A stretch of 64,000 nt of DNA from an uncultured delta proteobacterium (GCA_963771175.1 CAVYSY010000038.1:192001-256000); one strand, 5' to 3'. Shown: positions 1,822 to 30,495, numbered from the stretch's first letter. The notes: generated by a model from the sequence alone, not told the origin. Program-made: numbers and translations.

Positions 1822-3204
1822 ATGCGTCGCCTTCTCGCCCTCACAGTCCCGGCCGCCCTGATGATGGGGACCGGCTGTGTCGCCCACTACCACCAGCCCG
1901 GTACCACCTACGAGACCCGCGTCTACGAGTACCGGTACTCGGGCCCCCACCCGGATCCGTACGGCGGGTGGTGCACCGAGTCGTACAGCCACGTCCACGG
2001 CTACGCGCCCGAGGACGTCAACACGTACAACTACTCGAACGACGTGTACGTCTACCGGGGCCCCACGGTGGTCTGGTACCTCGACTACCACCCGGGGCCC
2101 AGCGGCGATCCCTGCTACATCCACGGCCGCCACAGCCACGACTACTTCCCTCACAGGCACACGAGCAGCACGTACCGCTGGGACAAGGGCCGCTCGGTGT
2201 ACGTCTACAACAACTACCGGCCCGCTCCGCCCCCCGGTGGCTGGGACAACTCGCACGACGCCTCGCCCGGTGGCTGGGGCAACCCGCAGCCTCCGCCCTC
2301 GAACAGTGGCGGCTGGGGCAACTCCAACCGGCCTCCTCCGTCGAACAATGATGGCTGGGGCAACTCCAGCCGGCCTCCTCCCGCGCCGGGAACGGGTTAC
2401 GGCACGCAGCCCCCGACGAGCGGCGGCGGCTGGGGCAACCCGACTCCGCCTCCGTCCAACCCGGGCGGTGGCTGGGGCAACCCGACTCCGCCTCCGTCCA
2501 ACCCGGGCGGCAACAACCCGACTCCGCCTCCGTCCAACCCGGGCGGCAACAACCCGCCTCCCGCCAATGGCGGCGGCTGGGGCAACACGCCCCCCGGGCA
2601 CGGCGGCACGCCTCCGGGACACGGGGGCACTCCTCCCGGCCAGGGCGGCTGGGGTCAGCCCCCCGGCCACAGCAACAACCCCGGCCAGGGTCATGACCGG
2701 GACAATGACGACGATTCGCCGCGTCCGCCTCGCGGCAATGGCGGCGGCTGGGGCAACGGTGGCGGCAACAGCGGTGGCAACAACACGCCTCCTCCGCCCA
2801 GCAACAGCGGTGGCAATGGCGGCGGTAACGGTGGCGGCTGGGGCAATGGTGGCGGCAACGGCGGTGGCAACAGTGGCGGCAGCACGCCGCCTCCGTCTCG
2901 TCCGCCCAGCAACGGCGGTGGCAATGGCGGTGGCTGGGGCAACGGTGGCGGCAACAGCGGTGGCGGCAATAGCGGTGGCGGCAGCACGCCTCCGCCGTCT
3001 CGTCCGCCCAGCAACGGCGGCGGCAATGGCGGCGGTAACGGTGGCGGCTGGGGCAACGGCAATGGCGACGGCAACGGCAATGGCGGTGGCAACGGCGGCG
3101 GCAATGGCGGCGGCAACGGCGGCGGCAACGGCGGCGGCAACGGCGGCGGTCGCGGCAACGGCAACGGCGGTGGCAATGGCTGGGGCCCTGGTGGACGCCG
3201 GTAG
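1822..3204 (+). CDS. Lipoprotein with His/Cys/Tyr-rich N-domain and long Gly/Asn/Pro low-complexity tail
   Basis: Signal peptide with lipobox (MGTG-C), GGAG upstream of ATG, GC3-rich codons, terminator-like hairpin downstream. Confidence 0.75.
   Translation: MRRLLALTVPAALMMGTGCVAHYHQPGTTYETRVYEYRYSGPHPDPYGGWCTESYSHVHGYAPEDVNTYNYSNDVYVYRGPTVVWYLDYHPGPSGDPCYIHGRHSHDYFPHRHTSSTYRWDKGRSVYVYNNYRPAPPPGGWDNSHDASPGGWGNPQPPPSNSGGWGNSNRPPPSNNDGWGNSSRPPPAPGTGYGTQPPTSGGGWGNPTPPPSNPGGGWGNPTPPPSNPGGNNPTPPPSNPGGNNPPPANGGGWGNTPPGHGGTPPGHGGTPPGQGGWGQPPGHSNNPGQGHDRDNDDDSPRPPRGNGGGWGNGGGNSGGNNTPPPPSNSGGNGGGNGGGWGNGGGNGGGNSGGSTPPPSRPPSNGGGNGGGWGNGGGNSGGGNSGGGSTPPPSRPPSNGGGNGGGNGGGWGNGNGDGNGNGGGNGGGNGGGNGGGNGGGNGGGRGNGNGGGNGWGPGGRR
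2260..3190 (+). repeat. Intragenic tandem/low-complexity repeats (GGWGN, PTPPPSNP, GGNG)
   Basis: Repeated ggctggggcaac, aacccgactccgcctccgtccaacccgggcgg (x3) and ggcggcaac units. Confidence 0.9.
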
Positions 3205-3231
3205 GAGTTGACCTCCAGCGGGTCGTGATTC

Positions 3232-3280
3232 GAGGGCCGCTCCCTTCCTTTCGAGGAAAAGGGGGCGGCCCTTCGTCTTT
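3232..3280 (+). terminator. Probable intrinsic terminator
   Basis: Stem agggccgctccctt / aagggggcggccct followed by tcgtcttt, about 30 nt after the stop at 3204. Confidence 0.65.
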
Positions 3281-3389
3281 CCACCGGTGAGCACTCGGGA
3301 CCCGGGGTGTTTTCCATCACCCAGGGGACGTCCACGGCCCGAGGGTGGATTGCCACCGCGCGGGAGCGTGAAGAACTTGGCGCGCAGCC

Positions 3390-4247
3390 ATGAAGCGTCC
3401 GCGTCTCGTCCTCTGCTGCGCTCTCCTCGGGCTTGCCCCGGTCGCATGTGGTCCTTCCAACGACCCGGACCCCGGCGTCGACCCCAGTGACAGTCAGGCG
3501 GTGGACCTCGACCACCTCGCCATCACCGTCACCGGCCGCGCCGAGCTCTTCCCCGAGGCCGCACGCCTGCTCGAAGCCCAGGGGCAACCCCTTCCCCCGG
3601 TCGAGGGGCTCGAGCTCACCCTCGAGGAGCCCCTGCGCGTCGGCGTGAGCGATCCAGATGCCGCGCTGGGCAAGGGCCCGGTCGGCGCCGGCGGCGAGTT
3701 CTCCGTGTCCGACGTCCCCGTGCGCGAGGTGAACCTGAGCCTCGCCGCCACCCTCGTGAGCGAGGGGCTCGTGCGCAGCTCCACGGTCGTCTTCGACACC
3801 GCCTTCACCCGCACGCGGCCGCGCACGGACATCATCAATGCCCGCGTCTGGGCCCTGCCCGTCTCCTTCCACGACACCCTGACCCGGGCCGTCGGCGAGA
3901 TGTCGATCCGCACCCACACCAACGACCGCGCCCTCACGCTGCGCGAGGCCGGCTTCATCCTCGGCCGCGTCGTGGATGCCTCTGGAGCACCCGTGGCTGG
4001 CGCCCGCGTCGCGCTCGACCGCGGCGACCTGGCCCATCGCATCTACTACCCCGCGCCGGACTTCCAGAGCGCCAGCCAGGACGCCACCAGCGCCACCGGC
4101 CTCTTCATCTACGTCCACTCCGGCGCGGAGGCGGAGATCTTCACCCTCTCCCTTCAGGGTTCCCAGGACTACCTGCCCCGCAACGCGGGCGCCACTCCCG
4201 GCCAGGGGCTCGTCCTCACCCTGTACCCGGGCAGCTTCGCTCCGTAG
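3390..4247 (+). CDS. Lipoprotein with carboxypeptidase-regulatory-like (beta-sandwich) domain
   Basis: Lipobox PVA-C; 'GRVVDASGAPVAGARVAL...TSATGLF' motif. Confidence 0.7.
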   Translation: MKRPRLVLCCALLGLAPVACGPSNDPDPGVDPSDSQAVDLDHLAITVTGRAELFPEAARLLEAQGQPLPPVEGLELTLEEPLRVGVSDPDAALGKGPVGAGGEFSVSDVPVREVNLSLAATLVSEGLVRSSTVVFDTAFTRTRPRTDIINARVWALPVSFHDTLTRAVGEMSIRTHTNDRALTLREAGFILGRVVDASGAPVAGARVALDRGDLAHRIYYPAPDFQSASQDATSATGLFIYVHSGAEAEIFTLSLQGSQDYLPRNAGATPGQGLVLTLYPGSFAP

Positions 4248-4309
4248 CTCTCGTCAACCCGAGAGGACAGGCGGAGGCTCGGTCGCACGGCGCCCCTCCC
4301 CGAGGGCAG

Positions 4310-5755
4310 CTACCCCGTCCGCTTCTTCGGGCTCGCGTAGGGCGCCAGGAGGTCGGGCCGGTCCACCAGACAGCGCAGCGCCCTGCCGGCGAATTCCTCC
4401 AGCCGGTCGATGAAGGCGAAGTCGTGCTCGTCGCCCGCCTCGTGCGCCAGCTCATGCAGGATGATGCCGAGCGTCCGCGGCTCCAGCGGGTCCTCCAGCC
4501 GCACCTGCCCGCGCATGTTCACCCGCAGCACGCGCCGCTCGCGGTCGTACTCCGCATCGACCTGGGCGCTCGGGTCGCGCACCTTGCGCTCGAAGAACTC
4601 CACGCCCACCTCCCGCCCGGTGAGCTCTCGCGACAGGCAGCGCACCAACCCCACGAAGCGCTCGGCCCTCGCCCCTGGCCGCACCAGCATGTCCCGCGGC
4701 GGGCCCTCCATCCGCTCCACGTAGGCGTCCGCCGACTCCACCACCGTCTCGAGCTGCGCCAGCGCCGAGTCCGGCATCCCCCGCAGGTCCACCACCTTCG
4801 CCCCGAGCTGCCGCGCCCGGTCATCCTCGAGGGGCCCCACGGACAGCACCGCCCGCGCCGGCAGCACCCTGGCCACGTAGGCTCCGAGCGCCTCCTCGCC
4901 CAGGGAGAAGTGCGCCAGCACCTCCGTCACCCACGCTCCCGACAGCTCCTGCCGGCTCAGCTCGGGCGCCAGCGACTCGAGGATGATGGCCGCCAGCGTG
5001 CGCTTGTACGGGTCCCTCGCCGCATCGCGCTCGGCCGCCAGCGGAATGCGCTGCTGCACGTCCACGTGCCACGGCAGGTGGTGCGGCTCCACCGGCAGCC
5101 CCAGCTCGAAGAGGTGCGGCGTCTCCCCGGGACGCGGGTGGTAGAGGTCCACCCGCGCGGGCCGCTCGACGAACCGCTCCACCGCGCGGTGCAGCTCCAC
5201 CGTCTCCAGGGGGCAGTCCTCCAGCGACTCCCGGAGCCTCGGAGGCCGTACTCCACGCCCGTTGATGACCAGCTCCACCCCCGGCGGTGGAATGGTGAGG
5301 CGCAGCAACTGGAGCGCGGCCTCGCGCTCGCTGGCGCTCGTGTGGCGGAAGAGCCGCAGGCACGTGCCCACCAGGCGCGTGTTGGCCTTCACGTGGCGCC
5401 CCGAGTCGTCGAACACGAGCGTGCGCCCCACCGTCTCCACCTCGGCGCGGTCGCTCGCGGCGATCATCTCCTTCAAGCCACGGCCCTTGCGCCCCCGCCA
5501 CGTGGGCGGCGTGTCCTTCTCCCCGAGGAAGACGGTGAAGGCGAACTCGTCACGCGCCAGTCCGGCGGGGGCATCGTCCTCGATGCGGACCTCGTCCTCC
5601 TCCAGGCGCACCTTCACCCGACGCGCGCGCTGGTCGAACGCGTTCTGCAGCGCCTCGCGCACGAGCTGACCGAGCGGCCGGGCACGGTTGGACCGCCGCC
5701 AGCCCTCCTCCGACAACTCGAACCATTCCGCACGACCGTTCCGGGCCTGGGGCAT
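4310..5755 (-). CDS. GHKL (HATPase_c-like) ATPase with C-terminal HExxH metallopeptidase motif
   Basis: N-box VREALQNAFD, IEDD.PAG, G-box RGRKGRGLK, GT; C-terminal ILHELAHEAGDEHDFAF; ATG at 5755. Confidence 0.7.
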   Translation of the reverse strand: MPQARNGRAEWFELSEEGWRRSNRARPLGQLVREALQNAFDQRARRVKVRLEEDEVRIEDDAPAGLARDEFAFTVFLGEKDTPPTWRGRKGRGLKEMIAASDRAEVETVGRTLVFDDSGRHVKANTRLVGTCLRLFRHTSASEREAALQLLRLTIPPPGVELVINGRGVRPPRLRESLEDCPLETVELHRAVERFVERPARVDLYHPRPGETPHLFELGLPVEPHHLPWHVDVQQRIPLAAERDAARDPYKRTLAAIILESLAPELSRQELSGAWVTEVLAHFSLGEEALGAYVARVLPARAVLSVGPLEDDRARQLGAKVVDLRGMPDSALAQLETVVESADAYVERMEGPPRDMLVRPGARAERFVGLVRCLSRELTGREVGVEFFERKVRDPSAQVDAEYDRERRVLRVNMRGQVRLEDPLEPRTLGIILHELAHEAGDEHDFAFIDRLEEFAGRALRCLVDRPDLLAPYASPKKRTG

Positions 5756-5900
5756 CAAGACTCTCCGAGTACGGGAAACACCTGAAAACACCTCGGGCCG
5801 CGCGTCTCTTCCCGGTGTGCACTCCGTCAGTGGACTTGACGCCCCCCGGCCCGAGGAGGGGCAATGAGTGCATGGTGGCCCCCCCTCCGGAGCGTGCGTG

Positions 5901-6635
5901 ATGACCCGAGACCTGGTAGCCGCCGCGGCCTCCAACAACGCGTCCTGGTGTGACGCGGTGTGCCGCTCCCATGGCCGTCCCGGCGAATTCGCGGAGGTGC
6001 TCTGGCTCAACCGCACCCCGGTGCCGCCCTTCTACCCGAACGTCGTCACGCTCACGCCGGAGGGAGTGGCTCGACAGGTGGACGCAATCTCCGCGCTCGT
6101 CCTGCCGGGACACTGGGGCGTCAAGGACAGCTTCGCGACGCTCGACCTCGCACCGCTGGGCTTCAGGGAGCTGTTCTCCGCGCAGTGGATCCACCTGCCC
6201 CCGGCAGGGCCGGCTCCCACCCTCTCCAGCGAAGTGCGCTGGGCCCAGGTCCATGACGCGAGCGCGTTGGCCACGTGGGAAGCGGCCTGGAGCGGCCCGG
6301 CTGGGAATTCCAGGCCGGACTCCGCGAACGCCCTGTTCCGTCCTGGCCTGCTCGAGGATTCAAGCACCACGTTCTTCGCCGCGTACCTCGGGGACGCCGT
6401 CGTCGCCGGTGCCATCGCGTATCGCGCCGCGGGGGTCGTCAGCCTGTCGAACACGTTCTTCACCGAGAGCGCACCCGGCATGCCGCGCGCGGAGCTCCTC
6501 GGGCAGGTCGCGAGGGCCTTCCCGGGCCTGCCGCTCGTTGGTTACGAGCACGGCGACGAGCTGGCCGAGTGGTGCGCCCTGGGCTTCGAGTCCCTCGGCC
6601 CCCTGCGGGTCTGGCTGAAGACGCCGGCCCCCTGA
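5901..6635 (+). CDS. Conserved hypothetical protein (possibly GNAT-like fold)
   Basis: Clean GC3-biased ORF; 'AASNNASWCDAVCRSHG' start and 'ALGFESLGPLRVW' end resemble a widespread uncharacterised family. Confidence 0.6.
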   Translation: MTRDLVAAAASNNASWCDAVCRSHGRPGEFAEVLWLNRTPVPPFYPNVVTLTPEGVARQVDAISALVLPGHWGVKDSFATLDLAPLGFRELFSAQWIHLPPAGPAPTLSSEVRWAQVHDASALATWEAAWSGPAGNSRPDSANALFRPGLLEDSSTTFFAAYLGDAVVAGAIAYRAAGVVSLSNTFFTESAPGMPRAELLGQVARAFPGLPLVGYEHGDELAEWCALGFESLGPLRVWLKTPAP

Positions 6636-10006: not shown

Positions 10007-10015
10007 GTCACATCA

Positions 10016-11624
<1,609 letters not shown>

Positions 11625-11867
11625 TAGCACTCCTTGAGGGGGATGGGGGGAAGCCATGGCTCCGCCCCTCCTGGGGAGAGCCGGGGCATAAGATGCACTT
11701 TTCCAGCCCTCAAGGGAAGCTCGTTTTTCTCGGAAATTGGTTATGACTCTCAAAACCTGATTTGAGCTGAAAACAACTCCGAGGGCCATCGACCGGGCAC
11801 CCGGAGGGCCGCCAGGAGGGCCACGTCCGGAGGCGACGCGGGGAGCGGGCTGGGTTAGGAGAAGGGC

Positions 11868-12602: not shown

Positions 12603-12603
12603 C

Positions 12604-14793
12604 TCACGGCACGGCGGAGATGGGCCCCCAGGGGAGCGTGCTCCCCGCGGGACGGCACTCGCGCCAGGCCTCGCCGCTGCCCTGCACGGGCGTCCCGTTC
12701 CGCTCCAGCGGCACGCCCACCGGGCAGACGCCGCGGGTGATGTTGCCCGCCGTGTCACGCACCTCGAAGTGGAGGGAGTACACGCGACCATCCCCACCAT
12801 CGGAGCGGTCCGCGCGGACCTTCACGGTGGTGGCGTCCACGAAGACGACATCCGGCTCGACCCCGCTCTGCGGCTCGTCGGAGGCCACGCAGGAGATAGA
12901 GGCGGAGGCCCCCGTGTGGGTGAGCCCGCCGCTGCACTTGTCGTGCACGGTGATGCAGTCCTCGAGGCGCACGGTGCGCAAGCCCTGGTCCGCGGGCCAG
13001 AAGGGCGCGGGCGGCGCCAGGGTGACGGTGGGAGGCCGCGGGTCCACCACCTCGATGATGGAGGTGCACGAGGCCTCGTTGCCCGCGGAGTCCTTCGCCG
13101 TGTAGCGCACGGTGTTGGTGCCGAGCGTGTACCAGTCCGACAGCGGGCCGGAGACCTGGGCGCCCGAGCAGGAGTCGGAGGCGGTGGCCAGGCCGGGGGC
13201 GACATAGGCGGAGTTGCGGCTGGTGCACTCGGCGATGATGCGCTCGGGGCACACGACCACGGGCACCTGGGTGTCCACCACCGTCACGGTGGGAGCACAG
13301 GTCGCGGTGTTGCCGGACGCGTCCGTCGCCGCGTACGTGAGCGTGTGCGAGCCGAGCGGCAGGCTGACGGACTCGGGCTGCGTCACGCTCGCCGGGCCGC
13401 AGTTGTCCGTGGCGCTGGCCTGCGGCGGCGACACGACGGCGCGCCCCTCGCTGGAGCACTCCACGCGGAAGTCGGCGGGGCAGGCGAGCGCGGGAGCCTC
13501 GCAGTCACGCACCGTCACCATGGACCAGCAGGAGTCCCGCGCCTTGCCGTCCGAGGCGGTGACGCAGACGCCGTGCATGCCCGGGGCATAGGGGCCCAGC
13601 GGGTGCAGGTCCCACGACACCGCGTCCCCATCCGGGTCCGTGGCGGTGGCCAGGTCCGTGACGGTGGCGACGCACACGCCCGGGTCGGTGCAGACGGAGA
13701 CGTCGTGGCACGTGGCATCGGGAGCGTGGTTCTCCTCCCTCTGGCACGAGGCGTTGCAGCCGTCCCCGGGCTTCACATTGCCGTCATCGCAGGCCTCGCC
13801 GGGGTCGACGGTGCCGTTGCCACACACCTGGCAGTCCGTGTCCTGCCCATCCACCGCGCCGTCGCCGTCGTTGTCACTCCCATCGCCGCAGTCCTCGGCG
13901 GTGAGGATGACGGCGGTGCCACCGAGCATCACCGGCCTGCCGGCGTGCGGGCTGAAGGCCTCGTCGTTGTAGGCGAGCACGCGCAGGCCCGAGAAGCCGC
14001 TCGGCCCGGTGAAGACGTTGTGGAAGGACTTGTGGCTGAGCTCGAAGGCGGTGAGGGTGGGCGCGAACTCGCGCAGCTCCTCGGTGGGCTCCGCGACGTC
14101 GAAGGGCAGGTCGGCCGTCTCCAGTGGAATGGGGAGGAAGCCCCAACCCCCGGGGACCTCGGCCTGGGTGAGGGCGATGAGCGAGCCACCCTTCTCGTTG
14201 ATGAACCGGGCGAGCTCCGGCTGGCGCGCGTTGAGCGCGGAGATCTGCCGCGGATTGATGCCGCCCTGGGTGTGCCGCTCCGCCGAGGGCAGGTAGACGA
14301 AGGCGAAGCGGTTGAAGTCCACGTGGGAGATCTCCTCGAGGGTGCGCACGTGGGTGACGCGCGCGCCGGGGCCGCCATTGGAGGAGTCGTTCCAGCCATT
14401 GAAGGCGGCGAGGGCCTGGGCACCGTTGACGCCGACGGCGAGGATGCCGGTGCCACCCGAGCGAGAGCGAGAGAGAGCGGAGCGGAAGAGCGAGGGATAG
14501 AGCCCGCCGCAGCCCTTGGCCTCGCAGTGCCACAGGTCGTCGGCGTCATCGCCCGTCACGACGACGAAGCCCCCCCGGGTGGGCCCGGAGGAAGGCGGCG
14601 GGGAGGAGGGAGTCGAGGGATGCGGGGCGGTCTCCAGCACGGGTTCGGCGTCGTGGATGGAGGTCTCGTTCCAATCCTCGTAGTAACCCATCCCACAGCC
14701 GGAGACGAAACCGACGAGCGACAGGATGGACAGGCACACACCGAGGCCCGGAAGGACGCTGGGCAAGCGAACAGGCGGACACGTATCGCGCAT
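12604..14793 (-). CDS. Surface lipoprotein with Myxococcus Cys-rich repeat and HYR domains
   Basis: Lipobox VSG-C; CGNGTVDPGEACDDGNVKPGDGCNASC; repeated ATDNC...YAATDASGN.ATC..VTVVD. Confidence 0.8.
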   Translation of the reverse strand: MRDTCPPVRLPSVLPGLGVCLSILSLVGFVSGCGMGYYEDWNETSIHDAEPVLETAPHPSTPSSPPPSSGPTRGGFVVVTGDDADDLWHCEAKGCGGLYPSLFRSALSRSRSGGTGILAVGVNGAQALAAFNGWNDSSNGGPGARVTHVRTLEEISHVDFNRFAFVYLPSAERHTQGGINPRQISALNARQPELARFINEKGGSLIALTQAEVPGGWGFLPIPLETADLPFDVAEPTEELREFAPTLTAFELSHKSFHNVFTGPSGFSGLRVLAYNDEAFSPHAGRPVMLGGTAVILTAEDCGDGSDNDGDGAVDGQDTDCQVCGNGTVDPGEACDDGNVKPGDGCNASCQREENHAPDATCHDVSVCTDPGVCVATVTDLATATDPDGDAVSWDLHPLGPYAPGMHGVCVTASDGKARDSCWSMVTVRDCEAPALACPADFRVECSSEGRAVVSPPQASATDNCGPASVTQPESVSLPLGSHTLTYAATDASGNTATCAPTVTVVDTQVPVVVCPERIIAECTSRNSAYVAPGLATASDSCSGAQVSGPLSDWYTLGTNTVRYTAKDSAGNEASCTSIIEVVDPRPPTVTLAPPAPFWPADQGLRTVRLEDCITVHDKCSGGLTHTGASASISCVASDEPQSGVEPDVVFVDATTVKVRADRSDGGDGRVYSLHFEVRDTAGNITRGVCPVGVPLERNGTPVQGSGEAWRECRPAGSTLPWGPISAVP

Positions 14794-20903: not shown

Positions 20904-22403
20904 TCAAGGCAGCAGGTTGGCCTTGTCGTTGATGGGCGACAGGTCGCCCGCGAAGTTGAGCAGATCCGTCATCTCGAACTCGCCCGCCTTGGCCGAGGGC
21001 AGCGTCGGCCGCCACTGCGGGTTGCTGGCCAGGAAGGAGCCGTTGTCCAGCTCGAGCATGCCCACGAAGACCTCGGACAGGATGCGGCTGCCCACGGGAC
21101 CGAGCCGCTTGCTGTCGCCGCGCTGCTCGGCCTCCTTGAGGATGTAGTACCAGAGCGGCGTCTCGACGTGCAGGCCGTGCTTCTCGGCCACCGCCCCATC
21201 GGGTCCCTTGGCGATGTCCTTGGGCGAGAGGGGCTCGATGCGCATGCGCCGCGCCACGTTCTGACCGGAGGGGAGCCCGAGGCTGCGCCCGCGCCGGAGG
21301 TTGGCGATGGGCAGGTTGACGCCGGGCAGGACCCCGTGGTCGGGAATCTCGGAGAGCGTCGGCGCGAGGAACGGGTCGAGCTTGCGGCTGAGGCCGGCCG
21401 TCACCCCATCGCCAGCGAACCGGAAGAACCGCCGCCAGTCGATGATCCAATCGCTGGGGATGGGCACGTTCTTGCCCGAGCGTCCGGAGAAGCGGAACAG
21501 GAGCTGGAGCGACGCCGGCACCCGCTTGCGAGGACTGTCCTTGAAGGTGAAGACCTCGTTGTAGTCGTACGCATCGCGCACCATGCTGTGCCCCAGGCGG
21601 TAGGCGGCGGCGGAGAACTCCACCGGGATGAAGGCATCCCCCTCCGGGAGGTAGAACGCCCGGCCCCGCTCCAGCACGTCGCCGAGCACCTTCTTGTCCA
21701 CCAACCGCGGCAGGAAGTCGTGCAGGACAATCCACTGGTAGTGCCAGATGACGAGCTTGCGCGCCTGCTCGAACAGGGTGGCCTGGGTCGCCGACGGGGG
21801 CGGCTTGAGGGTGCCGGCCTTGAGGCCCTCGACCACCTTGTTGTGGAAGCGGAGGAACGCCAGGTGGAGCTGGGCGACGATGAGGTTCTCGTCGTTGCGC
21901 GGGTCACCGATGATGGCCTGCGCCTGAGCGCCACGCGGCAGGTCGAAGGGGAGCGACGGCTTCACCTTCGGGTCGCCCGCGCCCGGGGCCGTGTTGGTGC
22001 TCCCGATGACGAAGAGCGCCTCGTTGGGAGGGAGCTGGTAGAGGTAGGGCTGATCGCCCGGTCCCCGGCCATAGACGCAGTCCAGGTCGAGTGCCGGTGT
22101 GCGGAAGTTGTGGAGCGCCAGCGGGTCGACCTGCACCTCCTGGATGGGCGTGGTGTCGAAGGTGATGTCGTGGTCGATGAACTGGCCGAGGTACGTGAAG
22201 CCCGCGGGGACGTCCTCGTTGTCACCCTTCGGGTCCGCGGGGATGGCGTCCTTCATCGCGCGGCCAAGGTCATCCAGGACCTCCACCGGCGGTAACAGCG
22301 GCTGGAGCGACGGAAAAATCCTCCCGAACTTCCCCGAGGGGACGAACTGCCCCAGCGGGGTCCCCTCCCCATTGCGAATCAAAATCCCATGAATTCCTGG
22401 CAT
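20904..22403 (-). CDS. Heme peroxidase of the peroxidase-cyclooxygenase (animal-type) superfamily
   Basis: YLGQFIDHDI distal motif, GDPRNDEN, EFSAAAYRLGHSMV proximal His, LGPVGSRI. Confidence 0.9.
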   Translation of the reverse strand: MPGIHGILIRNGEGTPLGQFVPSGKFGRIFPSLQPLLPPVEVLDDLGRAMKDAIPADPKGDNEDVPAGFTYLGQFIDHDITFDTTPIQEVQVDPLALHNFRTPALDLDCVYGRGPGDQPYLYQLPPNEALFVIGSTNTAPGAGDPKVKPSLPFDLPRGAQAQAIIGDPRNDENLIVAQLHLAFLRFHNKVVEGLKAGTLKPPPSATQATLFEQARKLVIWHYQWIVLHDFLPRLVDKKVLGDVLERGRAFYLPEGDAFIPVEFSAAAYRLGHSMVRDAYDYNEVFTFKDSPRKRVPASLQLLFRFSGRSGKNVPIPSDWIIDWRRFFRFAGDGVTAGLSRKLDPFLAPTLSEIPDHGVLPGVNLPIANLRRGRSLGLPSGQNVARRMRIEPLSPKDIAKGPDGAVAEKHGLHVETPLWYYILKEAEQRGDSKRLGPVGSRILSEVFVGMLELDNGSFLASNPQWRPTLPSAKAGEFEMTDLLNFAGDLSPINDKANLLP

Positions 22404-22604
22404 GGCTCTCCCTCGTGTAGGTGATGCATCGAGACAGACGTCACACATTGCGTCTGTGATCGCGGGCATGCCCCAGGGTGGGAAGCTCGGTGGGCTGGCA
22501 GCCACGCATCTCGAACGCGACCGCTAGATTTCAACGCGTGTAACGGGCCGCAATGCCCCGCGGGGCACCTGTCCGGAAGCACCCTCGACTCTCGGCCGGC
22601 GGGA

Positions 22605-23387
22605 CTACGTGTTGCTGGAGCCGCCGACCGCGCCGCGCCACGCCCGCCACCGCACGAGCGCGCAGCCCAGGGAGAGCCCGACGAGCGTGCCGGTGACGGT
22701 GGGCCAGAAGGCCCACCAGAGCTGCGCCTCCAACGCGCCCATGTCCTGGTAGCGCGCCAGCCGCAACGCGAGTCCCACGAAAGCCCCGGTGGCGGTGGGC
22801 AGCAGCATGCGAAGGAAGTCAGACCAGGAGCCCCCTCGCACGGGGGCCAGACTCGAATAGCGGCGCGCCATGTACCCGAGCACGATGAGCGAGCCCACGA
22901 GGGACGAGGCGTGCTGGAGGACACGGGCGAGCGGCAGCTCCCGGCTTCCGGCGAGAACACGCACCTCCGGGTAGAGGACGTCCGCGGGCCACATGCCGTG
23001 GTGGGTGAAACCATCCCAGAGGATGTGCGTGGCGGCCCCGAGCACGAGCGCCCCGGCGGCGACCCCCCAGGCGAGAGGCGTGCGCGGCAGGCCCCCGGTG
23101 CTGACGAAGCGGCCCCACTGCACACCGCCGACCTCGGGCAGGGCGAGGCGCAGCGCGGGCAGGACGAGCGCCTCCAGCCACACCAGTACCGCGAGGCCCA
23201 TGGGAACACAGAAGAGGACGAAACCGGGGACCGCATGCGAGAGGAGGCCCAGCCCTCGCACCGCGTACAAATAGGAGAGGTCGGGCGCACAGGCTCCGAC
23301 GACGAGCGCGGTGGGCAGCAACCCCCGGCGGAAGAGCCGGAAGAAGGGCAGCACCGCGGCGGCATGGGCAGGGAGGGTGACGGGCAT
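22605..23387 (-). CDS. DUF4184-family membrane protein
   Basis: MP.TLPAH.AAV, APDL, THILWDGFTH, LQHASS. Confidence 0.85.
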   Translation of the reverse strand: MPVTLPAHAAAVLPFFRLFRRGLLPTALVVGACAPDLSYLYAVRGLGLLSHAVPGFVLFCVPMGLAVLVWLEALVLPALRLALPEVGGVQWGRFVSTGGLPRTPLAWGVAAGALVLGAATHILWDGFTHHGMWPADVLYPEVRVLAGSRELPLARVLQHASSLVGSLIVLGYMARRYSSLAPVRGGSWSDFLRMLLPTATGAFVGLALRLARYQDMGALEAQLWWAFWPTVTGTLVGLSLGCALVRWRAWRGAVGGSSNT

Positions 23388-23450
23388 GGGTGTCCGCCCC
23401 CATGCGTAGTCACGATGCCGCCCGGGGCAACCCCCTCGGGTCACATCCCG

Positions 23451-26400
23451 TCAGGCCGCGTCGGCGTCCGTACGCGACACAGGGGCGGCCGAGTCGTCGG
23501 GCCTCCAGGGCCAGGCCCGCGGGGCGATGCGCGCGTAGAGCAGGAAGAGCGACTCTCCGTCGGCGTGCTCGCGACAGACGCGACTGGCCTCGCGCAGCAG
23601 CGGACCCGGCGACAGCTCCCGGCCAGACTCGCGTAGCAGGGATCGCAGCGCCTCCGGCACGGCCTCGAAGATGCCATCCTTGTTGAGCCGCCCGTCGTTG
23701 GCCTCCGCGCACGACTCCAGGTGGCGCACCAGCTCGGCCTTCAGCCGCGCGTCGTACCCGAAGACGTACGAGCACATCTGGAACAGCTCCGAGCCCGCCT
23801 CCGTCATCAGGTCCGACTGCTCGCGCGCGAAGCCCGGCTCGCCCGCGGCCCGCCACAGGCAGTCCCACCGCGACTGCGAGGCATGGCGTGCGTACAGCGC
23901 CCGCGCCGTGAGGTAGCTCTGCATCGAGTCGTGGAAGAAGCGCACGTGCGTGGGCACCGGGCCGGGCCGCGCGTCCGCCGGCACCAGCAGCCCCGCGTCC
24001 AGCAGCACCCGCAGCTTCGCCTCGTCCGGGCTGTCCCGGAAGATGATGAGCCGGCTGCGGTGCTCCCAGTAGCTGCCCAGGCACAGCGTCTCCGCGAAGG
24101 TCAGCAGCTCCGAGGTGGCCTCGTCGTCCGGGGCCTTCTTCAGCAGCCCCGCGAACACGGCACGGTAGAGGTTGATGACGCTGTCCACGTCGCTCCCGCC
24201 GAAGCGCAGCGCCAGTCGCACGAGGATGGGCACGTAGGTCGCGTCCGCCACTCGCCCCCGACAGATGCGCTTGAGTGACTCGGAGAGCGGCACGGGCTTC
24301 CCGTCGGCGCCCGGGTACGCGGCCTGGAAGCGCACCAGCCCCGCCTCGTCCAGCCGCTTCGGCTCCACCCCCATCCAGCGCAGCGAATGCTCCATCGCCG
24401 TCCGGTACGCCTCGTTGGGCCGGGCCGACAGCAGCAGCGGCGCGTGCAGCCCCATCTCGCGCTCCAGGTAGCGGCGCAGCGCCTCGGGCTCCACCCTCGA
24501 CTCGGTGAGGCCGTCCAGCACGAGGAAGAAGTCCCCCGACTCCAGCAGCGCGTCCCGCAGCGCCTCCGGCAGCCCGAGGTCCTTCAGCGATTCCTTCGCG
24601 GCGGACTCCAGGTCCTCGGCCGCCGGATCGATGAAGACGGGCAGCGGCGAGGAGGGCTGCTTCTCGAAGCGCTCCAGCGACAACCGGACGAGCTGCCGCA
24701 GCAGGGCGCTCTTCCCCCGGCCTCCCGCGCACTGGATGAGCAGGTGCGCGCGCTCGCGCGTGAGCAGCGTGGCCAGCTCCTCGGCGGTGCGCTCGGAGGG
24801 CGAGGGCGGCACCCCGGGCCCGGCGTACTCGGTGACGTGCGAGGACAGCTCCACGTACACCTCGTCGTTGGCGCGGGCCGAGGCCACCTCCACCCGGCGG
24901 CGCACCTGCCGGACATAGGAGGCGAAGAAGCGGCGCCGGAAGGCGGGCCAGCGCAGCAGCGGCGCGGCGGCCCAGGAGAACGGATGGGTGAAGACGAGCC
25001 GGCGGAACACGCTCGGAGACAGCAGCCCCAGGCCCGCGCACAGCACCAACTCGGCACCCACCACGGCCATCAGGGAGGGCACGTGGATGCGCAGGCCACC
25101 CAGCAACCCGAGCACCTCGCCGCCACCCGCGCCCACGACGGAGGCGACGTAGCCGAGGAGCGGCAACCACTTGCGGGGAGCGGCGGTGGGGCGCAGCAGC
25201 AACATGGGCAGCAGGAGCAGCAGCGTCACCGCGAGGCACGCCAGCGCGGTGCGCACCCAGACGCGGTCGAGCAGCGGCATGCCGAAGGGCACGTGCCGGA
25301 AGGTGGCGGTGAGGCGGGTGCCATTCTCCACCTCGTGCGCCAACACGGCCCGGTAGAGGCGCTCCGCGTCTCCCGGGGGCTCCGTCCACTGGAAGAGTGG
25401 GCCGGCCGGCACCCCGAGGCGCCGAAGCCCCTGCCCGGCCAGCGCGTCTCCGTCCTCCGCGCGCAACTCGAGCCGCAGCGAGCGCCCGAGCTCCGTGGCA
25501 TGTGCGAGCCCGGGCCAGTCGAGCTCCAGGGACTCCAGCGGCAGGCCCGCCTCGAGCTTGCCCGCCATGTGGACCTTTCCGCTCGCGTCGCGCTCGAGGC
25601 GGGCGCCCCCCGCGAAGCCCACGCCCATGCGCCCCACATCCGAGGCCGGTCCGTAGATGTAGCTGCGCGGCTCGCCGGCAATCCACACGCGCCCGGTGCC
25701 CTGGATGGGGAGCACGTCGCGCATCCCCGCGCCCTCGAGCACCAACTGTGCACTCGGCCCGTCTGGCGTGAGCACGAGCCGATGCAGGGCCGTGCCACCG
25801 TCCAACAGCAGCCACCCATCCTTCTCGCTCCAGGCCTTCAGCAGTGGGGCGCCAGAGCCCATCGGCAGCGGGGCGCTTGCCGTGATGGCGTTGCCCTTCA
25901 CGGACAGCAGGCGGACCTCGCCAGCCTCCGTCACCGCCCACGCGTGCTCCGCGGAGAGCGGCAGGAGCCACGCGCCGCCGAACCCCTGCGCGCTACGCGC
26001 CACCTCGTTCCCGTCATCCCCCAGGAGGTAGACGCGCCCATCGCCGATGCTCCACACGTCGCCGTCCGGCGAGCGCCACAGCGACGGTATCCCCTCCACC
26101 GCCAGCCCCGTGCCCACCGTCTTCTCATCGCGCCCCACCAGCCGCACCTCGCTCCGGGAGGACGACGCAGTCCCCCGCCAGCACGGCCCAGACCCGGTCC
26201 GCATCGCGATGGGCGAAGATGCCCCGGACGCCAGCCCCCCCGAACATCACGCGCTTGGCGCTCTTCGCTCCGTCGCGGCTGACGAGCAGGAGCTGGACGG
26301 GCATCCCGGGCTGAGCCGCGAACACCCAGATGCTCTGGGGCCGCCGGGTGGGGAGGAGGCAGCATGTCGCGCATCTCGAGCAGGCGCCGGCTGAGTGGGC

Positions 26401-27107
26401 GAGCGTTCGTCCAGGTCCACGAAGTGGAGGCCCTGGTCCAGCACCAGCCAGCCCTGGCGCCCCTCCGCCACGGGCATCACCGTGCGCGCGGTGGTCCACC
26501 AGAGGCTGGAGGTCACCTTCAAGCCTTGACCCGAAGGAGACAGCGAGACGACCTCCACCCGGCCCGTGGCATCGATGACCCGGAGCTGGGAGTCGAACTC
26601 GGACAAGGCCCAGAGCCGCTCGCGCCCCGCTGTGGGGGTGAGCGCCAGCTCGAAGGCCCCCTCGTCCAACAGGCCCCGGGCGGTGCCTTGATGGTCCACC
26701 AGGAACACCTGGCTGCGCACCTTGGCCGAAGGCGAGAACACCTGAACCTGAACCCAGGCACGCTCGGGGTCCGCCGTGGGCACCACGTGCAGGATGGCTC
26801 CGCCCGTCTTGTCGCCGAAGCTCACGGAGGTGAGCTCACGGCCCTCCGCGTCCACGAGCCTGAGCCCGACCCGACCCGGCGTCCACACCCAGGCATGGTG
26901 GCCATGCCCGCACGGCACGATCTCACTGCCTCGCGCGATGGGCTTCAGCCAGTACCCCTCGACCTCGGCCTCGACGGGTGGAGGCGGGGCCTCGCTCTGG
27001 GCACGGGCGGCCACGCTCGCGAGCAGCAGGAGCACGGCGCTCGCGAGGAGCGGCCCCTGGGGAAACAGGCTCCGCCGGAAAGACCGGGCACGGGAGGAAG
27101 TCGTCAT
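23451..27107 (-). CDS. Large membrane protein: signal peptide + beta-propeller-like repeats + TM helices + NACHT/STAND-like NTPase (2-3 apparent frameshifts at 26150-26400)
   Basis: Joined from ORFs 26247..27281, 26125..26499 and 23451..26204; Walker A AGGRGKS, Walker B FLVLDGLTE, LLLSARP, FFHDSMQSY. Confidence 0.7.
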
Positions 27108-27198
27108 GGCGAGCGGACGTCCGGGGGCAACGAGGAGCCCGGGCGCCGGTGCATTGTGGCACAGGAGCCCCCGCTTCAGAGCCCCCCCGGGCCGCGAC

Positions 27199-27658
27199 TC
27201 ACCCGCGCGTCTTGAGCAGCCGGGTAAGCTCGCGGTCGAGGCTGGCGGCGAACTGCTGGCGGTCCTGGTTGGAGAAGCCACTGGGGCCGCCGGTGTTCAC
27301 CCCGCTGTCGCGCAGCTCCTGCATGAAGTTCCGCACCGAGAGACGCTCGGAGATGTTCTCCTCGCTGAAGAGCTCCCCGCGCGGGTCGAGCACCACCACG
27401 CCCTTGGGGACGAGCAGCGCGGCGAGCGGGATGTCCTGGGTGACGGCGAGGTCCCCGGTCTGGGCCGAGGCGGCGATGTGCCGGTCCGCCACGTCGAGCC
27501 CGGAGCCCACCTGCACCGTGGAGACGAGCTCCGAGCGAGGCAGGGTGAGGCGCTTGTTGGCCACGAAGACGATGGGGACCTGCAAGCGCTGCGAGGCGCG
27601 CAGGAGGATGTCCCGCACCGGCACCCGGACACGCATCGGCGTCGATCCAGATTCGCAT
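27199..27658 (-). CDS. yaiI: YaiI/YqxD (UPF0178) family protein, frameshift near 27625
   Basis: MRIWIDADACP then PVRDIL..VAN..VADRHI..VTQDIPLA..DPRGELF. Confidence 0.9.
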
Positions 27659-27664
27659 GTGGGC

Positions 27665-28108
27665 TCAGCCCTCGGTGTTGCGCAGGAAGTCGGCGACGTC
27701 GGCGAAGCGCTTGTCGAGGAACACACGCACCGAGCCCTTCACGCCCCGGGCATCCATCGCCCGGCTCATGCTGCGCACCCAGGCATCGCGCATGGCGATG
27801 TCCACGGGAACGTGTCCGTGGCGCATGCGCAGGCGCGGGTGGCCGTGCTTCTCCATGTAGTGCTGGGGTCCGCCCAGCCAGGCGATGAGGAAGAGGCCGA
27901 AGCGCTCACGCATGCCGCGCGACACCCTGCCCTGCTCATCCAGCTCATGCAGGCGGGCGAGCGCCGGCTCGTGCGCATCCATGGCGTCATAGAAGGCCTC
28001 GGCGAGGGCTCGCACGCCCTCCTCCCCACCCAGACGGTGGAAGGGCATGTCCTCCATGGTGGGGTACCAGTCGTCATCGCTGGGAACGTTCAGCCCGATG
28101 GGCTTCAT
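27665..28108 (-). CDS. Group II truncated hemoglobin
   Basis: LGGEEGV..L...FYD.M, WLGGPQHY...GHPRLRMRH, RDAW. Confidence 0.92.
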   Translation of the reverse strand: MKPIGLNVPSDDDWYPTMEDMPFHRLGGEEGVRALAEAFYDAMDAHEPALARLHELDEQGRVSRGMRERFGLFLIAWLGGPQHYMEKHGHPRLRMRHGHVPVDIAMRDAWVRSMSRAMDARGVKGSVRVFLDKRFADVADFLRNTEG

Positions 28109-28193
28109 TCCCGGTGGACATAGCGGTATTCAACCCGGTGCGGGGAGACACATTCTCCTCGCACAGCGCGCGCGGCGGGGAAAGCCCTTCGTC

Positions 28194-29086
28194 TCACGCC
28201 GCCCAGCGCTTGGGGCGCGTCTTCATCGTGGTGAGCCCCAGCGAGTCGCACAGCGCCAGGAAAGGCTCGCGAGGCACACCCGCCCAGGCGAGGTCCTCGA
28301 GGGACTCGGCCCAGGGGCACGTCCGTCACCAGCGTGGCGAGCTTGCGGTAGAGCAGCGCGTCCTCGCGGTGCTCGCGCAGGGTGGCCGCGAGCTTGTCCG
28401 CGCCGCGCGGGCGCACCGTCCAGTCGAGGCCGGGTCGTCGGGAATGGCCTCCAGGTGGCCGTAGGCGCCGAGCAGCGCCGACGCGCTCTTCTCGCCGAAG
28501 CCGGGCAGCCCCGGGATGCCGTCCGCGTCGTCGCCCACCAGCGCGAGCAGGTCCGGCACGCTCGCCGGGCGCGACGCCGCGCTGCGCGCGCACCGCGTCC
28601 TCGTCGAGCACCTTCTCGCTGCCTGCGGTCCACCTGCACCACGCGCTCGCCCGCGCACGCACTGCCCGAGGTCCTTGTCCGGCGTGAGGATCCGCACCTG
28701 CTCGACCTGGCCCGGCCCAGCGCGCGGCGGCGGTGGCCAGCGCGTCGTCGGCCTCGTAGCTCCTTCATCGACCAGACCGTGACGCCCGAGCGCGCGCACC
28801 GCCTCCTCGACCAGGTCGAACTGCGCGAGCAGCTCGGGCGGCACGCCCTCGTCGGTCTTGTAGCCGGCGAAGAGGTCGTTGCGGAACGAGCGGATGGGGT
28901 TGTCGAAGGCGACGCGCGACGTGGCGTCACCGCCTCCGTCGGCGTCGTGCAGCAGCGCGAGCAGCGAGCGACACGAGCCCCACCGTGGCCTTCACGTCCC
29001 GACCGTCCGGCGCGGTGTGAGCCGGGGCGGGGCGAGAAGTGGGCGCGGAAGAGCTCGTAGGTACCGTCGACGAGGTGCAGGCGCAT
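28194..29086 (-). CDS. Standalone 5'-3' exonuclease / flap endonuclease (PolI N-terminal-like), multiple frameshifts
   Basis: LHLVDGTYELFRAHF, PDKDLGQCV, LVGDDADGIPGLPGFGEKSA (H3TH), LYRKLATL spread over several frames. Confidence 0.85.
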
Positions 29087-29101: not shown

Positions 29102-29569
29102 TCAATTCCGGCGGTAGCGGACCACGGTGACCTCGATGTCCGCGCCCTCCGCCTCCAGCGAGGACACCATCACCGCGAGCGCCCGCGCCTCGTCGAAGCC
29201 ACCGCTGCCCGAGCCGATGACGGGAAACGCCACGGAGCGGAAGCCGTGCTCCCGCGCCCGCGCGAGCGCATTGGCCACCGAGTCCCGGATGGAGCGCTCG
29301 GACGAGCGCCAGAGCATGTTGATGCCGGCCACGTGGATGATGCCCTGGTAGGGCAGCCGGCCCGCGGAGGTGACCACCGCCGAGCCGAGTGGCATCGGCC
29401 CCACGCGCGCCAGCTCGCGGAAGGGCTGGAGCCCGCCCCGCTTCTTGATGGCACCCGATACGCCCTGCGGCAGCAACAACCACCACGGGATGATGTTCCG
29501 GTTCCAGGCGTTGACGATGGCGTCGACCCGCTGCTCCAGCAGGTCTCCCTCGACGATGTGCGGCGTCAT
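29102..29569 (-). CDS. Macro domain (ADP-ribose binding/hydrolase) protein
   Basis: VEGDLL..VDAIVNA.N, GVSGAI, IIHVAG, SVAFP.IGSGSGG. Confidence 0.9.
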   Translation of the reverse strand: MTPHIVEGDLLEQRVDAIVNAWNRNIIPWWLLLPQGVSGAIKKRGGLQPFRELARVGPMPLGSAVVTSAGRLPYQGIIHVAGINMLWRSSERSIRDSVANALARAREHGFRSVAFPVIGSGSGGFDEARALAVMVSSLEAEGADIEVTVVRYRRN

Positions 29570-29706
29570 GGTGGGCTCCAACCTCCACCAGTCAACGCGA
29601 GCGGCGAGGACCTGTCGAGCCTCCCTCCTTGACTGGGCGAGTGGCACCTGGGCCCTCGACCGGCGGTAGCAGGCTCCTCGCGCATGGAAGCTTGTAGAGT
29701 GCGCCC

Positions 29707-30495
29707 ATGCGCCCACTGCTCATCCTGACGGCCCTGCTCGCCGCGACGTCCTCGGTAGCCCAGTCCGCGCCCGAGGCGCCCAAGTCCATGCTCCTCGTCT
29801 GGGGCGGAGGCAAGACGCCCCAGGAGGCCGAGGCCGCCGCGAAGGACTACCGCGAGCGCGCCGGCGACTGGAAACAGGTGCTGACGCTCGCCGAGGGCTA
29901 CCCGCGCATCCTCGAGAGCGACACCGTCCCCGGCCTCAAGCCCGGCTTCCACGTGGTGGTGCTCGGCGTGTGCGAGCCCAAGGAGGGCGCCACCCTCGAG
30001 GCCGCCTTCGACGCCCTGGAGCCCCGCACCTACAGCCGCGAGGTGTCCTGGCCCGAGAAGGGCAAGCTGCCCTGCCCGCAGCTCGCCTATTACTGGTCCT
30101 TCGAGAACTCGGTGCGGGCCAAGAGCAAGCAGGGCGACCTCCTCGCCGCCTTCTTCAGCGCCTCCGAAGCCGAGGGCGACTTCGAGATGCACGGCTGGCA
30201 CGTGGTGTTCACCGCGTTCGACAAGCAGGGCAAGCGGCTCGGCACGCGCACGGAGTCCTCCGGCACCACGTACTCCGACCTCCAGCAACTGGAGGCCAAG
30301 GGGGCCCGGCTGCTGATGAAGGAGCGCAAGCTGGACCCGCCATGCCATGGCGCGCCGAGCTTCGAGGTGGTCGAGCGCACCTGGAGCGCGCGCCTCGACG
30401 GGGAGGCCATCGTCATCGACAGCGGCACCACGAAGAGCGTGGAGTCGGGCTCCTGCTCGTACCCGGAGCTCGGGGCTCCCCCCGAGGGAGACTGA
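29707..30495 (+). CDS. Secreted hypothetical protein
   Basis: Signal peptide (SVA-Q), strong GC3 codon bias, 'VPGLKPGFHVVVLGVC' motif. Confidence 0.65.
   Translation: MRPLLILTALLAATSSVAQSAPEAPKSMLLVWGGGKTPQEAEAAAKDYRERAGDWKQVLTLAEGYPRILESDTVPGLKPGFHVVVLGVCEPKEGATLEAAFDALEPRTYSREVSWPEKGKLPCPQLAYYWSFENSVRAKSKQGDLLAAFFSASEAEGDFEMHGWHVVFTAFDKQGKRLGTRTESSGTTYSDLQQLEAKGARLLMKERKLDPPCHGAPSFEVVERTWSARLDGEAIVIDSGTTKSVESGSCSYPELGAPPEGD

Follow-up and report, generated by a model that had tools for sequence, protein, structure and literature searches.

A candidate transmembrane NLR-like receptor with an exported β-propeller and a cytoplasmic STAND NTPase module in an uncultured delta proteobacterium

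We analyzed a myxobacterial gene on the minus strand (27107..23451) of a 64,000-nucleotide stretch of DNA from an uncultured delta proteobacterium (GCA_963771175.1, CAVYSY010000038.1:192001-256000); this whole stretch is called the window here. The gene probably encodes a single-chain inner-membrane STAND NTPase receptor that senses the envelope via an exported β-propeller. An initial annotation of the DNA had proposed such a protein, i.e., an exported propeller, transmembrane (TM) helices and a cytoplasmic NACHT-type STAND NTPase in one chain, and this layout held up in the orthologue comparisons and structure predictions described below. To our knowledge, all characterized STAND- and NLR-type sensors of bacteria, plants and animals read cytoplasmic signals, and surface sensing is performed by other receptor classes. 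If our reading is true, the protein would be a candidate envelope-contact sensor for social, predatory bacteria.

The gene starts with an ATG at 27107, ends with a TGA at 23451-23453 and comprises about 1218 codons when read through, with a frame that is broken in the window copy. The intact orthologues P0002 and P0007 each matched the window in one tblastn high-scoring segment pair, from about 27107 to 23454. No second copy of the gene was found within the window.

We modeled the TM and cytoplasmic part of the protein with AlphaFold2 (AF2), using the window's own 613 residues and 71 diverse relatives; helix numbers given here refer to this model. Its predicted local distance difference test score (pLDDT) was 91.4 and its predicted template modeling score (pTM) was 0.90. 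With full-length P0034 and an alignment of only 30 close orthologues, the cytoplasmic part had been modeled poorly (pLDDT 30-60), a problem that was solved with the deeper alignment. In the model, a nucleotide-binding domain (NBD) with a five-stranded α/β core is followed by helical domain 1 (HD1), a winged-helix domain (WHD) and a second helical domain (HD2). The NBD (24360..24842, minus strand like all parts of the gene) was delimited from its β-α core and from motif conservation; by sequence motif, it contains Walker A, CAGGRGKS (24708-24731), Walker B, FFLVLDGLTE (24501-24530), and sensor-1, LLLSARP (24417-24437). HD1 (24060..24347, helices 316-411) holds the sequence YVPILVRL and was assigned with the help of Foldseek alignments to the NACHT modules of NLRC4, NLRP3 and NOD2. 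The WHD (23883..24023) is formed by a helix, a β-hairpin and a helix at 424-470 and carries FFHDSMQSY (23913-23939), and an HD2-like C-terminal helical domain (23487..23861, helices 478-602) was placed by AF2 and Foldseek. All motifs named in the initial annotation were thus recovered, i.e., AGGRGKS (24728), FLVLDGLTE (24527), LLLSARP (24437), YVPILVRL (24236) and FFHDSMQSY (23939).

These motifs are kept across the 71 relatives. In Walker A, G190, G191, G193 and K194 are found in 71 of 71 sequences, as is Ser or Thr at position 195. In Walker B, D260 is present in 71, E264 in 67 and G261 in 62 of the 71. The sensor-1 Arg (R291) is invariant (71/71), its Pro nearly so (P292, 63/70), and the WHD His of FFHDSMQSY occurs in 70 of 71 relatives. 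The chain continues for about 153 residues beyond this motif, where some 150 helical residues had been estimated, and about 125 helical residues follow the WHD. Neither AF2 nor Pfam revealed a cytoplasmic repeat sensor or a recognizable effector domain, and there is nothing beyond HD2. The features of the STAND class are hence present, i.e., Walker A, Walker B with an acidic residue, the sensor-1 Arg and, by model, helical and winged-helix domains C-terminal to them.

When we compared the TM and cytoplasmic model with the PDB in Foldseek, 83 matches were found at E<=0.001. Ranks 1-42 were all animal NLR entries, with NLRC4 (4kxf, E 5.9e-10) first, then NLRP3, NOD2, NAIP and NLRP2/7/9/14; three of these 42 are oocyte-lattice entries for which the table gives no chain identity. 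CED-4 was found at rank 44 and Apaf-1 at rank 50. TMq values of the model were higher against closed structures with bound ADP (0.40-0.46) than against active or open assemblies (0.23-0.31). Moreover, NACHT, NPHP3_N and nSTAND families are found in the closest clusters of the ESM Atlas.

Three TM helices precede this module. TM1 (25197..25262, helix 11-32) starts with VWVRTALAC at 25262 and is predicted to run from out to in, based on hydropathy, the AF2 helix and the basic loop that follows it throughout the family. TM2 (25095..25178, helix 39-66) would lead back from in to out; it is an AF2 helix, Gly-rich and weakly hydrophobic, and starts with a conserved W-x-P (W42 in 48/57 and P44 in 51/57 sequences). 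TM3 (24996..25082, helix 71-99), assigned from hydropathy and AF2, again would run from out to in and ends in a conserved S-P-x-x-F-R. Basic juxtamembrane helices (24873..24980, AF2 helices 105-140) with conserved P-F and RRR motifs (R119 in 67/70, R120 in 50/70 and R121 in 54/70) link the TM bundle to the NTPase.

The charges around these helices are distributed alike throughout the family. The loop after TM1 is basic, with Arg or Lys in 71% of the family at position 41 and in 41% at position 40. The loop after TM2 is acidic or neutral (Asp or Glu at position 70 in 55%; D70 in 33/62), and the stretch after TM3 is strongly basic, with R97 in 57 of 67 sequences (91% in another count) and Arg or Lys at positions 119-121 in 83-99%. 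This pattern supports a positive-inside arrangement with the N-terminus outside and the C-terminus inside, as initially expected together with an odd number of TM helices. At least two strong hydrophobic peaks within the 140 residues before the module were present in 118 of 120 distant long relatives. Since TM2 is weakly hydrophobic, the case for an odd number of TM helices is built on the charge bias, on the AF2 helices and on the need for an ATPase to be cytoplasmic, and the odd number is supported rather than proven. A four-copy complex prediction with the TM and juxtamembrane residues 1-145 had a score of 0.00, left the partner fold uncertain and carries no weight in either direction. We also observed acidic residues within the membrane helices, in GGGE of TM2 and GAE of TM3. 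Orthologues keep them almost without exception (E647 and E669 in P0034), whereas the wider family retains them in part, with Glu at position 81 in 13 of 62 sequences.

At the N-terminus, a signal-like segment, MTTSSRARSFRRSLFPQGPLLASAVLLLLASVAARA-QSE, begins at the ATG at 27107. Orthologue comparison and a hydropathy peak define a putative signal peptide of residues 1-37 (26997..27107) with a basic n-region, a Leu/Ala h-region and an ARA/QSE cleavage site. In 27 of 30 orthologues the basic and hydrophobic N-terminus is followed by a lipobox ending in Cys; P0007 from A. violaceum and P0034 from Melittangium have no lipobox Cys, and one more orthologue has a longer N-terminus. Judged from these sequences, most orthologues should carry a lipoprotein anchor in addition to their TM helices, so that the ectodomain would be tethered at both ends. 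In a crude test, signal-like N-termini were found in 71 of the 120 distant long relatives.

The predicted extracytoplasmic domain (25263..26996, about 560 residues) is all-β and consists of ten Trp-centered four-stranded blades followed by a short membrane-proximal β-unit, as assigned from the Trp ladder, an AF2 model of P0034 and Foldseek. About ten repeats centered on Trp had been noted at the outset, and all of them are present in the translations. Conservation and predicted fold show that they do not arise by accident. The ten Trp positions are spaced by 38-49 residues and are invariant or nearly so in 30 orthologues, and residues 30-592 of P0034 were modeled as all-β four-stranded units with a pLDDT of about 80-90. 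In the PDB, Foldseek matched the ectodomain to tandem-propeller proteins, including PorZ and the periplasmic sensors BT4663, BT4673 and BT3049 of Bacteroides hybrid two-component systems (HTCS), with E-values of 1e-15 to 1e-11 and low TM-scores (0.1-0.26). Pfam found no Reg_prop or Y_Y_Y domain in any ectodomain scanned, i.e., in the window pieces and in two sets of 40 and 14 relatives; the only Pfam matches in the relatives' ectodomains were HEAT repeats (5/40) and scattered single sub-threshold hits to AbfS_sensor and BiPBP_C. The ESM Atlas gave no usable match with the ectodomain, and a Foldseek comparison of the full-length model with viral structures returned generic propellers only. A side observation concerns the first blade, where the motif P-C-G-H-G-x-H-A-W-x-W (P0034 residues 53-62; window about 26900-26935) is conserved. 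Its residues C53, H55, H58, W60 and W62 are invariant in 30 orthologues, with variants visible in distant relatives, and from this conservation the motif may be a candidate metal or ligand site.

The protein belongs to a sizeable family. A word-seeded search with a 931-residue piece yielded 43 proteins, one of them the window's own 895-residue gene call. Among the other 42, 37 proteins are 1161-1242 residues long and five have 531-1100 residues; four of these five sit on contigs of 2-5 kb and the fifth, P0043 (1100 residues), is the interrupted copy of locus L013 described below. An exhaustive HMMER search with the 517 cytoplasmic residues found 243 representative clusters (50% identity) at E<=1e-3, of which 209 remained at E<=1e-10 and 149 at E<=1e-30. 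Most of the 243 are 1100-1300 residues long with the match at the C-terminus, and throughout this broad family a long N-terminal region, TM helices and the module lie in one chain (120 representatives). A profile search among proteins of 2367-5000 residues found no relatives. Profile searches with named sources added paralogues at 41-45% identity, e.g., D187_005558 and D187_000541 of Cystobacter fuscus DSM 2262, which also has the orthologue D187_002439. Further paralogues occur in Stigmatella, Hyalangium, Pyxidicoccus, C. ferrugineus, Melittangium and Sorangium, and some myxobacteria have two to three of them.

Within this family, the ectodomain is the part that changes. When 154 cytoplasmic modules were placed in a tree, one clade of 25 tips with a support of 0.99 took in all 17 members with HEAT-type N-terminal regions (P0059, P0070, P0072, P0083, P0091, P0093, P0097, P0106, P0109, P0112, P0148, P0154, P0161, P0167 and P0218-P0220). 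These were flagged by Pfam or by an N-terminal motif, and the other eight tips of the clade are mostly short fragments. Signal-like N-termini were found in 11 of 13 motif-flagged HEAT-type members. The same chassis of three TM helices and NTPase thus carries an exported ectodomain of one of two kinds, propeller or HEAT repeats. The mean pairwise identity among the 30 orthologues was lowest in the ectodomain (0.55) and higher in the TM region (0.79) and in NBD and HD1-WHD (0.85). Median dN/dS ratios (Nei-Gojobori, 78 pairs from 13 loci) showed the reverse order, with 0.62 (ectodomain), 0.27 (TM region) and 0.25 (cytoplasmic part); codon bias at 70% GC inflates all three values, and only the contrast between them is meaningful. 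A fast-evolving, exchangeable ectodomain is as expected of a sensor. The family thus joins such a repeat domain to an NLR-type switch via three TM helices and would allow a direct test of whether a NACHT switch can be driven across a membrane. Two members have additional C-terminal features: P0060 shows a near-threshold EAD1 adaptor domain (23.8 bits, cut-off 24.2) and P0112 a second STAND module (nSTAND1/NACHT, above threshold).

We propose the following mechanism for a receptor that reads the envelope. Sequence, models and relatives support its first part, in which a Sec signal peptide, of lipoprotein type in most orthologues, exports the ten-blade ectodomain and three TM helices bring the chain back to the cytoplasm, where the basic juxtamembrane helix leads into NBD-HD1-WHD-HD2. 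The next steps are modeled on STAND and NLR proteins, since these work so in general. The resting module would hold ADP in a closed state in which the WHD His touches the nucleotide. Engagement of the periplasmic propeller, by a ligand or by contact, could be relayed via the TM2/TM3 hairpin and the juxtamembrane helix, upon which ADP/ATP exchange would follow and the protein would oligomerize in the membrane plane. The output might come from the clustered TM and juxtamembrane helices or from a partner encoded elsewhere. As the initial annotation had suggested, we infer, by analogy, that an envelope signal may control oligomerization, and that the TM bundle may act as effector. A more far-reaching version is tentative and on the whole rather doubtful: the protein would be the founding example of a family of bacterial "surface NLRs", in which an exchangeable periplasmic propeller or HEAT domain detects an envelope cue (phage adsorption or DNA injection, prey or kin contact, cell-wall damage), NACHT-driven oligomerization in the membrane follows, and the clustered three-helix TM units with their conserved Gly and acidic residues are a built-in effector, i.e., an ion leak or pore. 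If this were true, one protein would join the logic of TLRs and receptor kinases with that of an NLR resistosome.

The main rival to envelope sensing is control in the opposite direction. Here, the cytoplasmic nucleotide state would drive or gate the propeller, e.g., for recruitment or release of an envelope partner as in FtsEX-type systems, and the protein would regulate cell wall, polysaccharide, motility or development. This fits a gene that is single-copy at a conserved syntenic chromosomal place across genera, among housekeeping genes in 14 Archangiaceae genomes. It also fits a protein with strongly constrained TM and cytoplasmic parts and with no effector domain, and no conserved partner gene was seen at the compared orthologue loci. 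Nevertheless we consider such an inside-out machine unlikely: the ectodomain is the fast-evolving part that is exchanged between propeller and HEAT repeats, which is sensor-like, and characterized STAND NTPases work as ligand-triggered switches.

Several results weigh against the proposed envelope-sensing STAND receptor. Present data do not tell outside-in from inside-out signaling. The neighboring genes are conserved housekeeping genes and form no defense island, and vertical, syntenic inheritance among them speaks for resident signaling as much as for immunity. Two sequence profiles run against PDB chains found no significant relative; one gave 0 hits, and the other matched at the P-loop level only, with Bms1 as the best (E 0.0026) and NLRC4 and MLA13 at E ~2. 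No Pfam, NCBIfam or PADLOC model reached its threshold for the family, in the window pieces or the scanned relatives. As TM2 is Gly-rich, only 60 of the 120 relatives had a third hydrophobic peak, and this with a permissive cut-off. The window copy itself is disrupted as assembled and has an Arg (CGT, 27003-27005) at the place of the lipobox Cys, which may mean that the protein can do without its lipid anchor or may be one more sequence error. Finally, in the accessible part of the work of Kibby et al. (bioRxiv 10.1101/2022.07.19.500537), the NACHT signature, for the clade as defined by Koonin and Aravind, is D[GAS]hDE, i.e., a small residue after the Walker B Asp and then two acidic residues. 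The present family has D-G-h-[ST]-E instead, with Ser or Thr in place of the first acidic residue in 57 of 71 relatives. Because one of the two acidic residues is missing, we file the modeled module as STAND and NACHT-like, not as NACHT in the strict sense.

The broken frame of the window copy was compared with intact orthologues. The open reading frame (ORF) table of the window lists the pieces 26247..27281, 26125..26499 and 23451..26204. In the main frame, ORFs 26247..27296 and 23451..26246 meet at an in-frame TGA (26247-26249). Relative to the intact orthologue L004 (ORF 2505..6404), DNA alignment placed three +1 shifts in the window at ~26395, ~26360 and ~26175 and an additional 9-nt in-frame insertion. 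The shift positions were read from a MAFFT alignment of the variable region with L004, L006 and L009 and are accurate to about 10 nt. In the frame-disrupted stretch (26175..26395) the protein path leaves the main frame, passes through a short stretch in each of the two other frames and returns to the main frame. The initial annotation had joined three frames to read the protein; all three are indeed used, but the first and last pieces of the gene share the same one.

We regard the three compensating shifts as most likely assembly errors and the gene as probably intact in the organism. This is favored because three shifts of the same sign restore the frame within 220 nt, because the rest of the gene is free of stops and encodes a protein 85% identical to P0002, and because two nearby genes are frame-shifted compared with intact orthologues elsewhere. 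One of these, a gene for a multi-PAS/GAF histidine kinase of about 1200 residues (34745-31127, minus strand), changes frame at ~32090 relative to L008 and L005, which in the alignment looks like another single-base indel. The other, a 5'-3' exonuclease gene (~28105-29086, minus strand), is spread over at least two frames with its start in another frame; at a DNA identity of ~85%, its orthologues match it in one frame with a protein identity of only 54%, and Pfam found no match for its longest ORF in the window. Frame breaks thus affect three of roughly nine genes compared, and an indel-prone assembly therefore fits better than three independent, fresh pseudogenes within 8 kb. A real recent pseudogene, in which the three 1-nt insertions and the TGA are genuine and this strain makes no full-length protein, would agree with the frame as assembled, with the gene caller's protein on this contig (P0001), which is only the 895-residue C-terminal part, and with the additional loss of the lipobox Cys. 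In view of the restored frame, the stop-free remainder and at least two neighbors with the same kind of shift, we think this improbable.

A membrane P-loop NTPase of another class, e.g., KAP, YobI/Tmn-like or generic AAA, that only superficially resembles NLRs could be imagined from the weak domain hits. Pfam PF05729 (NACHT) gave no hit on the window pieces at E<=0.1. The relatives that came closest scored 24.7 bits, for one of 14 named paralogues scanned, and 23.6 bits (cut-off 26.7); in the set of 40 relatives, four had such a sub-threshold hit, and one database entry (P0205) has a precomputed PF05729 tag. Among the 40 relatives, sub-threshold Pfam hits were to NACHT (4), nSTAND_NTPase5 (8), AAA_16 (8) and NB-ARC (1), and 17 had no hit; KAP_NTPase also occurs among the weak hits and Atlas neighbors. 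The window pieces themselves gave nothing usable in Pfam, NCBIfam or PADLOC, with BiPBP_C at 19 bits, sub-threshold, as the only match. However, the Foldseek alignments span 450-540 columns of the NLR, CED-4 and Apaf-1 modules, so that the full NBD-HD1-WHD-HD2 succession is matched to NLRC4, NLRP3 and NOD2, conservation extends to the sensor-1 Arg-Pro and to the His motif of the WHD, and the TM helices precede the P-loop domain and are not inserted into it. We consequently give another P-loop class very little credence. Without a Pfam, NCBIfam or PADLOC model, the family is invisible to censuses of defense systems and STAND proteins that rely on those models.

Intact single-ORF orthologues from named sources confirm that the receptor gene is one unit. 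They come from Archangium (e.g., AA314_01121 of A. gephyra), Cystobacter, Vitiosangium and Melittangium, and so do all 14 loci obtained when a single genome of each species was scanned; two of these genera, Archangium and Vitiosangium, are members of the Archangiaceae. In 13 of the 14 loci a single stop-free frame covers the whole match. The remaining one, L013 (Cystobacter fuscus NCWS, 10001-13596), is interrupted near its 3' end, and its stop-free frame makes up 90% of the match. Two or three separate genes for a secreted propeller protein and a membrane-anchored NTPase, as the separate ORFs of the window's table taken alone might suggest, were hence ruled out as highly implausible, with 13 of 14 loci in one continuous frame and one chain in 120 representatives.

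To set the receptor among known systems, we compared it with animal NLRs and with bacterial proteins. The NACHT modules of NLRC4, NLRP3, NOD2 and NAIP have the same NBD-HD1-WHD-HD2 order over ~500 columns (Foldseek). Walker A, the Walker B pattern D-G-h-x-E, the sensor-1 pattern hhh[ST][ST]RP and the winged-helix motif F-x-H-x-S-x-Q-x-[YF] are features that we take to be shared with NLRs. Unlike animal NLRs, the protein described here has no C-terminal LRR and no N-terminal CARD, PYD or other effector; its repeat domain is N-terminal and exported, three TM helices stand before the module, and the identity is 12-16%. The tripartite order of cytoplasmic NLRs, i.e., effector-NACHT-repeat, is hence not found. 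In Avs proteins, the effector is N-terminal, and the sensor, which recognizes phage proteins within the cell, is C-terminal and cytoplasmic. They resemble the present protein as single-chain STAND switches with a repeat-type recognition domain, but their effector/sensor layout is absent here, PADLOC gave 0 hits and there is no defense island. The HTCS sensors BT4663 (4a2m), BT4673 (3ott, 3va6) and BT3049 (3v9f) likewise carry a tandem-propeller-like periplasmic domain ahead of a membrane anchor (Foldseek E ~3-5e-11). In contrast to these, there is no Reg_prop or Y_Y_Y match here, the TM-scores are 0.12-0.21 and the output part is a STAND NTPase and not a histidine kinase/response regulator.

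Bacterial NACHT proteins with TM regions come close to this arrangement. According to the accessible text of Kibby et al. (bioRxiv 10.1101/2022.07.19.500537), some members of this class may recognize intramembrane or periplasmic signals. As described there, a NACHT-type module is joined to TM segments, as in the present protein, in which, by contrast, a large exported propeller and the TM helices are N-terminal and nothing follows HD2. Our clade may be among the 25 of Kibby et al. (Table S1). KAP/PifA and the YobI-family Tmn are inner-membrane P-loop NTPases that, in the part of the source available, combine sensing and membrane-level output in one polypeptide (bioRxiv 10.64898/2026.03.01.708804). 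The same part of that preprint gives four TM helices outside the P-loop domain for the KAP family and two inserted within it for YobI/Tmn, and names the phage T2 protein RIIB as the Tmn trigger, which activates it when co-expressed in the cell. In the present protein, by contrast, a large exported domain is followed by three TM helices and only then by the module, and the putative sensor is outside the cytoplasm; moreover, KAP/Tmn do not have the STAND fold, whereas the fold here is NACHT-like. A TM insertion within the P-loop domain was not seen, as 50 residues separate the last TM helix from the first NBD strand and the NBD runs without a break. By analogy, and as far as the accessible text goes, the Tmn-type membrane-integrated NTPase defenses may serve as precedent for output at the membrane level.

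As to earlier descriptions, a 2024 PNAS paper on diversity-generating retroelements (DGR) predicts, in its accessible part, a periplasmic placement for some STAND-linked sensors, and the accessible part of a 2026 Nature census of STAND proteins (PMC13581612) makes no mention of the periplasm. An exported N-terminal propeller or HEAT domain with three TM helices and a C-terminal NACHT-like module was not described in the accessible literature, which included Kaur et al. 2020 and 2021 and lay mostly outside subscription journals; Table S1 of Kibby et al. and the census tables may list the clade. The locus tags of six orthologues were not mentioned in the literature searched. The initial view that this is not a described system thus stands for the architecture in the literature searched; it does not for the family as such, in that some members are already named "NACHT domain-containing protein" by NCBI or UniRef and, in the text available, Kibby et al. 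note a TM class.

Around the receptor gene, a DUF188/YaiI gene, a truncated globin gene (27665-28108), the exonuclease gene and a macro-domain gene (29102-29716) lie upstream on the same strand; the globin and macro-domain proteins were assigned by domain search. PADLOC, run on four proteins, gave 0 hits. Downstream, a gene for a DUF4184/Zn-dependent phospholipase-C-like membrane protein (22605-23444, minus strand) is followed by one for an animal-haem-peroxidase family protein (20904-22505, minus strand; domain search). The Pfam match of the DUF4184 protein begins at residue 20, and its true start is likely at about 23387, at a Met just before this match. We set this gene aside as a partner: it is adjacent to the receptor gene in 9 of 13 assessable loci, 3-5 kb away in three and absent within 10 kb in one. 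In two of the three loci with an insert that were scanned, the inserted genes differ, with glyoxalase-like, OmpA-like and TSP3 genes in L008 and a DbpA helicase gene in L014. A membrane hydrolase would be a plausible effector, with weak linkage. A second candidate, a divergent gene without a Pfam match, encodes a Pro-rich multi-TM protein and separates YaiI from the receptor gene in L008 (8507-9784, minus strand) and L004 (1275-3989, minus strand). It was rejected as a partner, being absent from the window between 27178 and 27199. Several other loci have a gap of comparable size at the same position. The peroxidase, globin and macro-domain genes are ordinary neighbors, but the peroxidase and globin pair near an envelope receptor gene may be worth a look.

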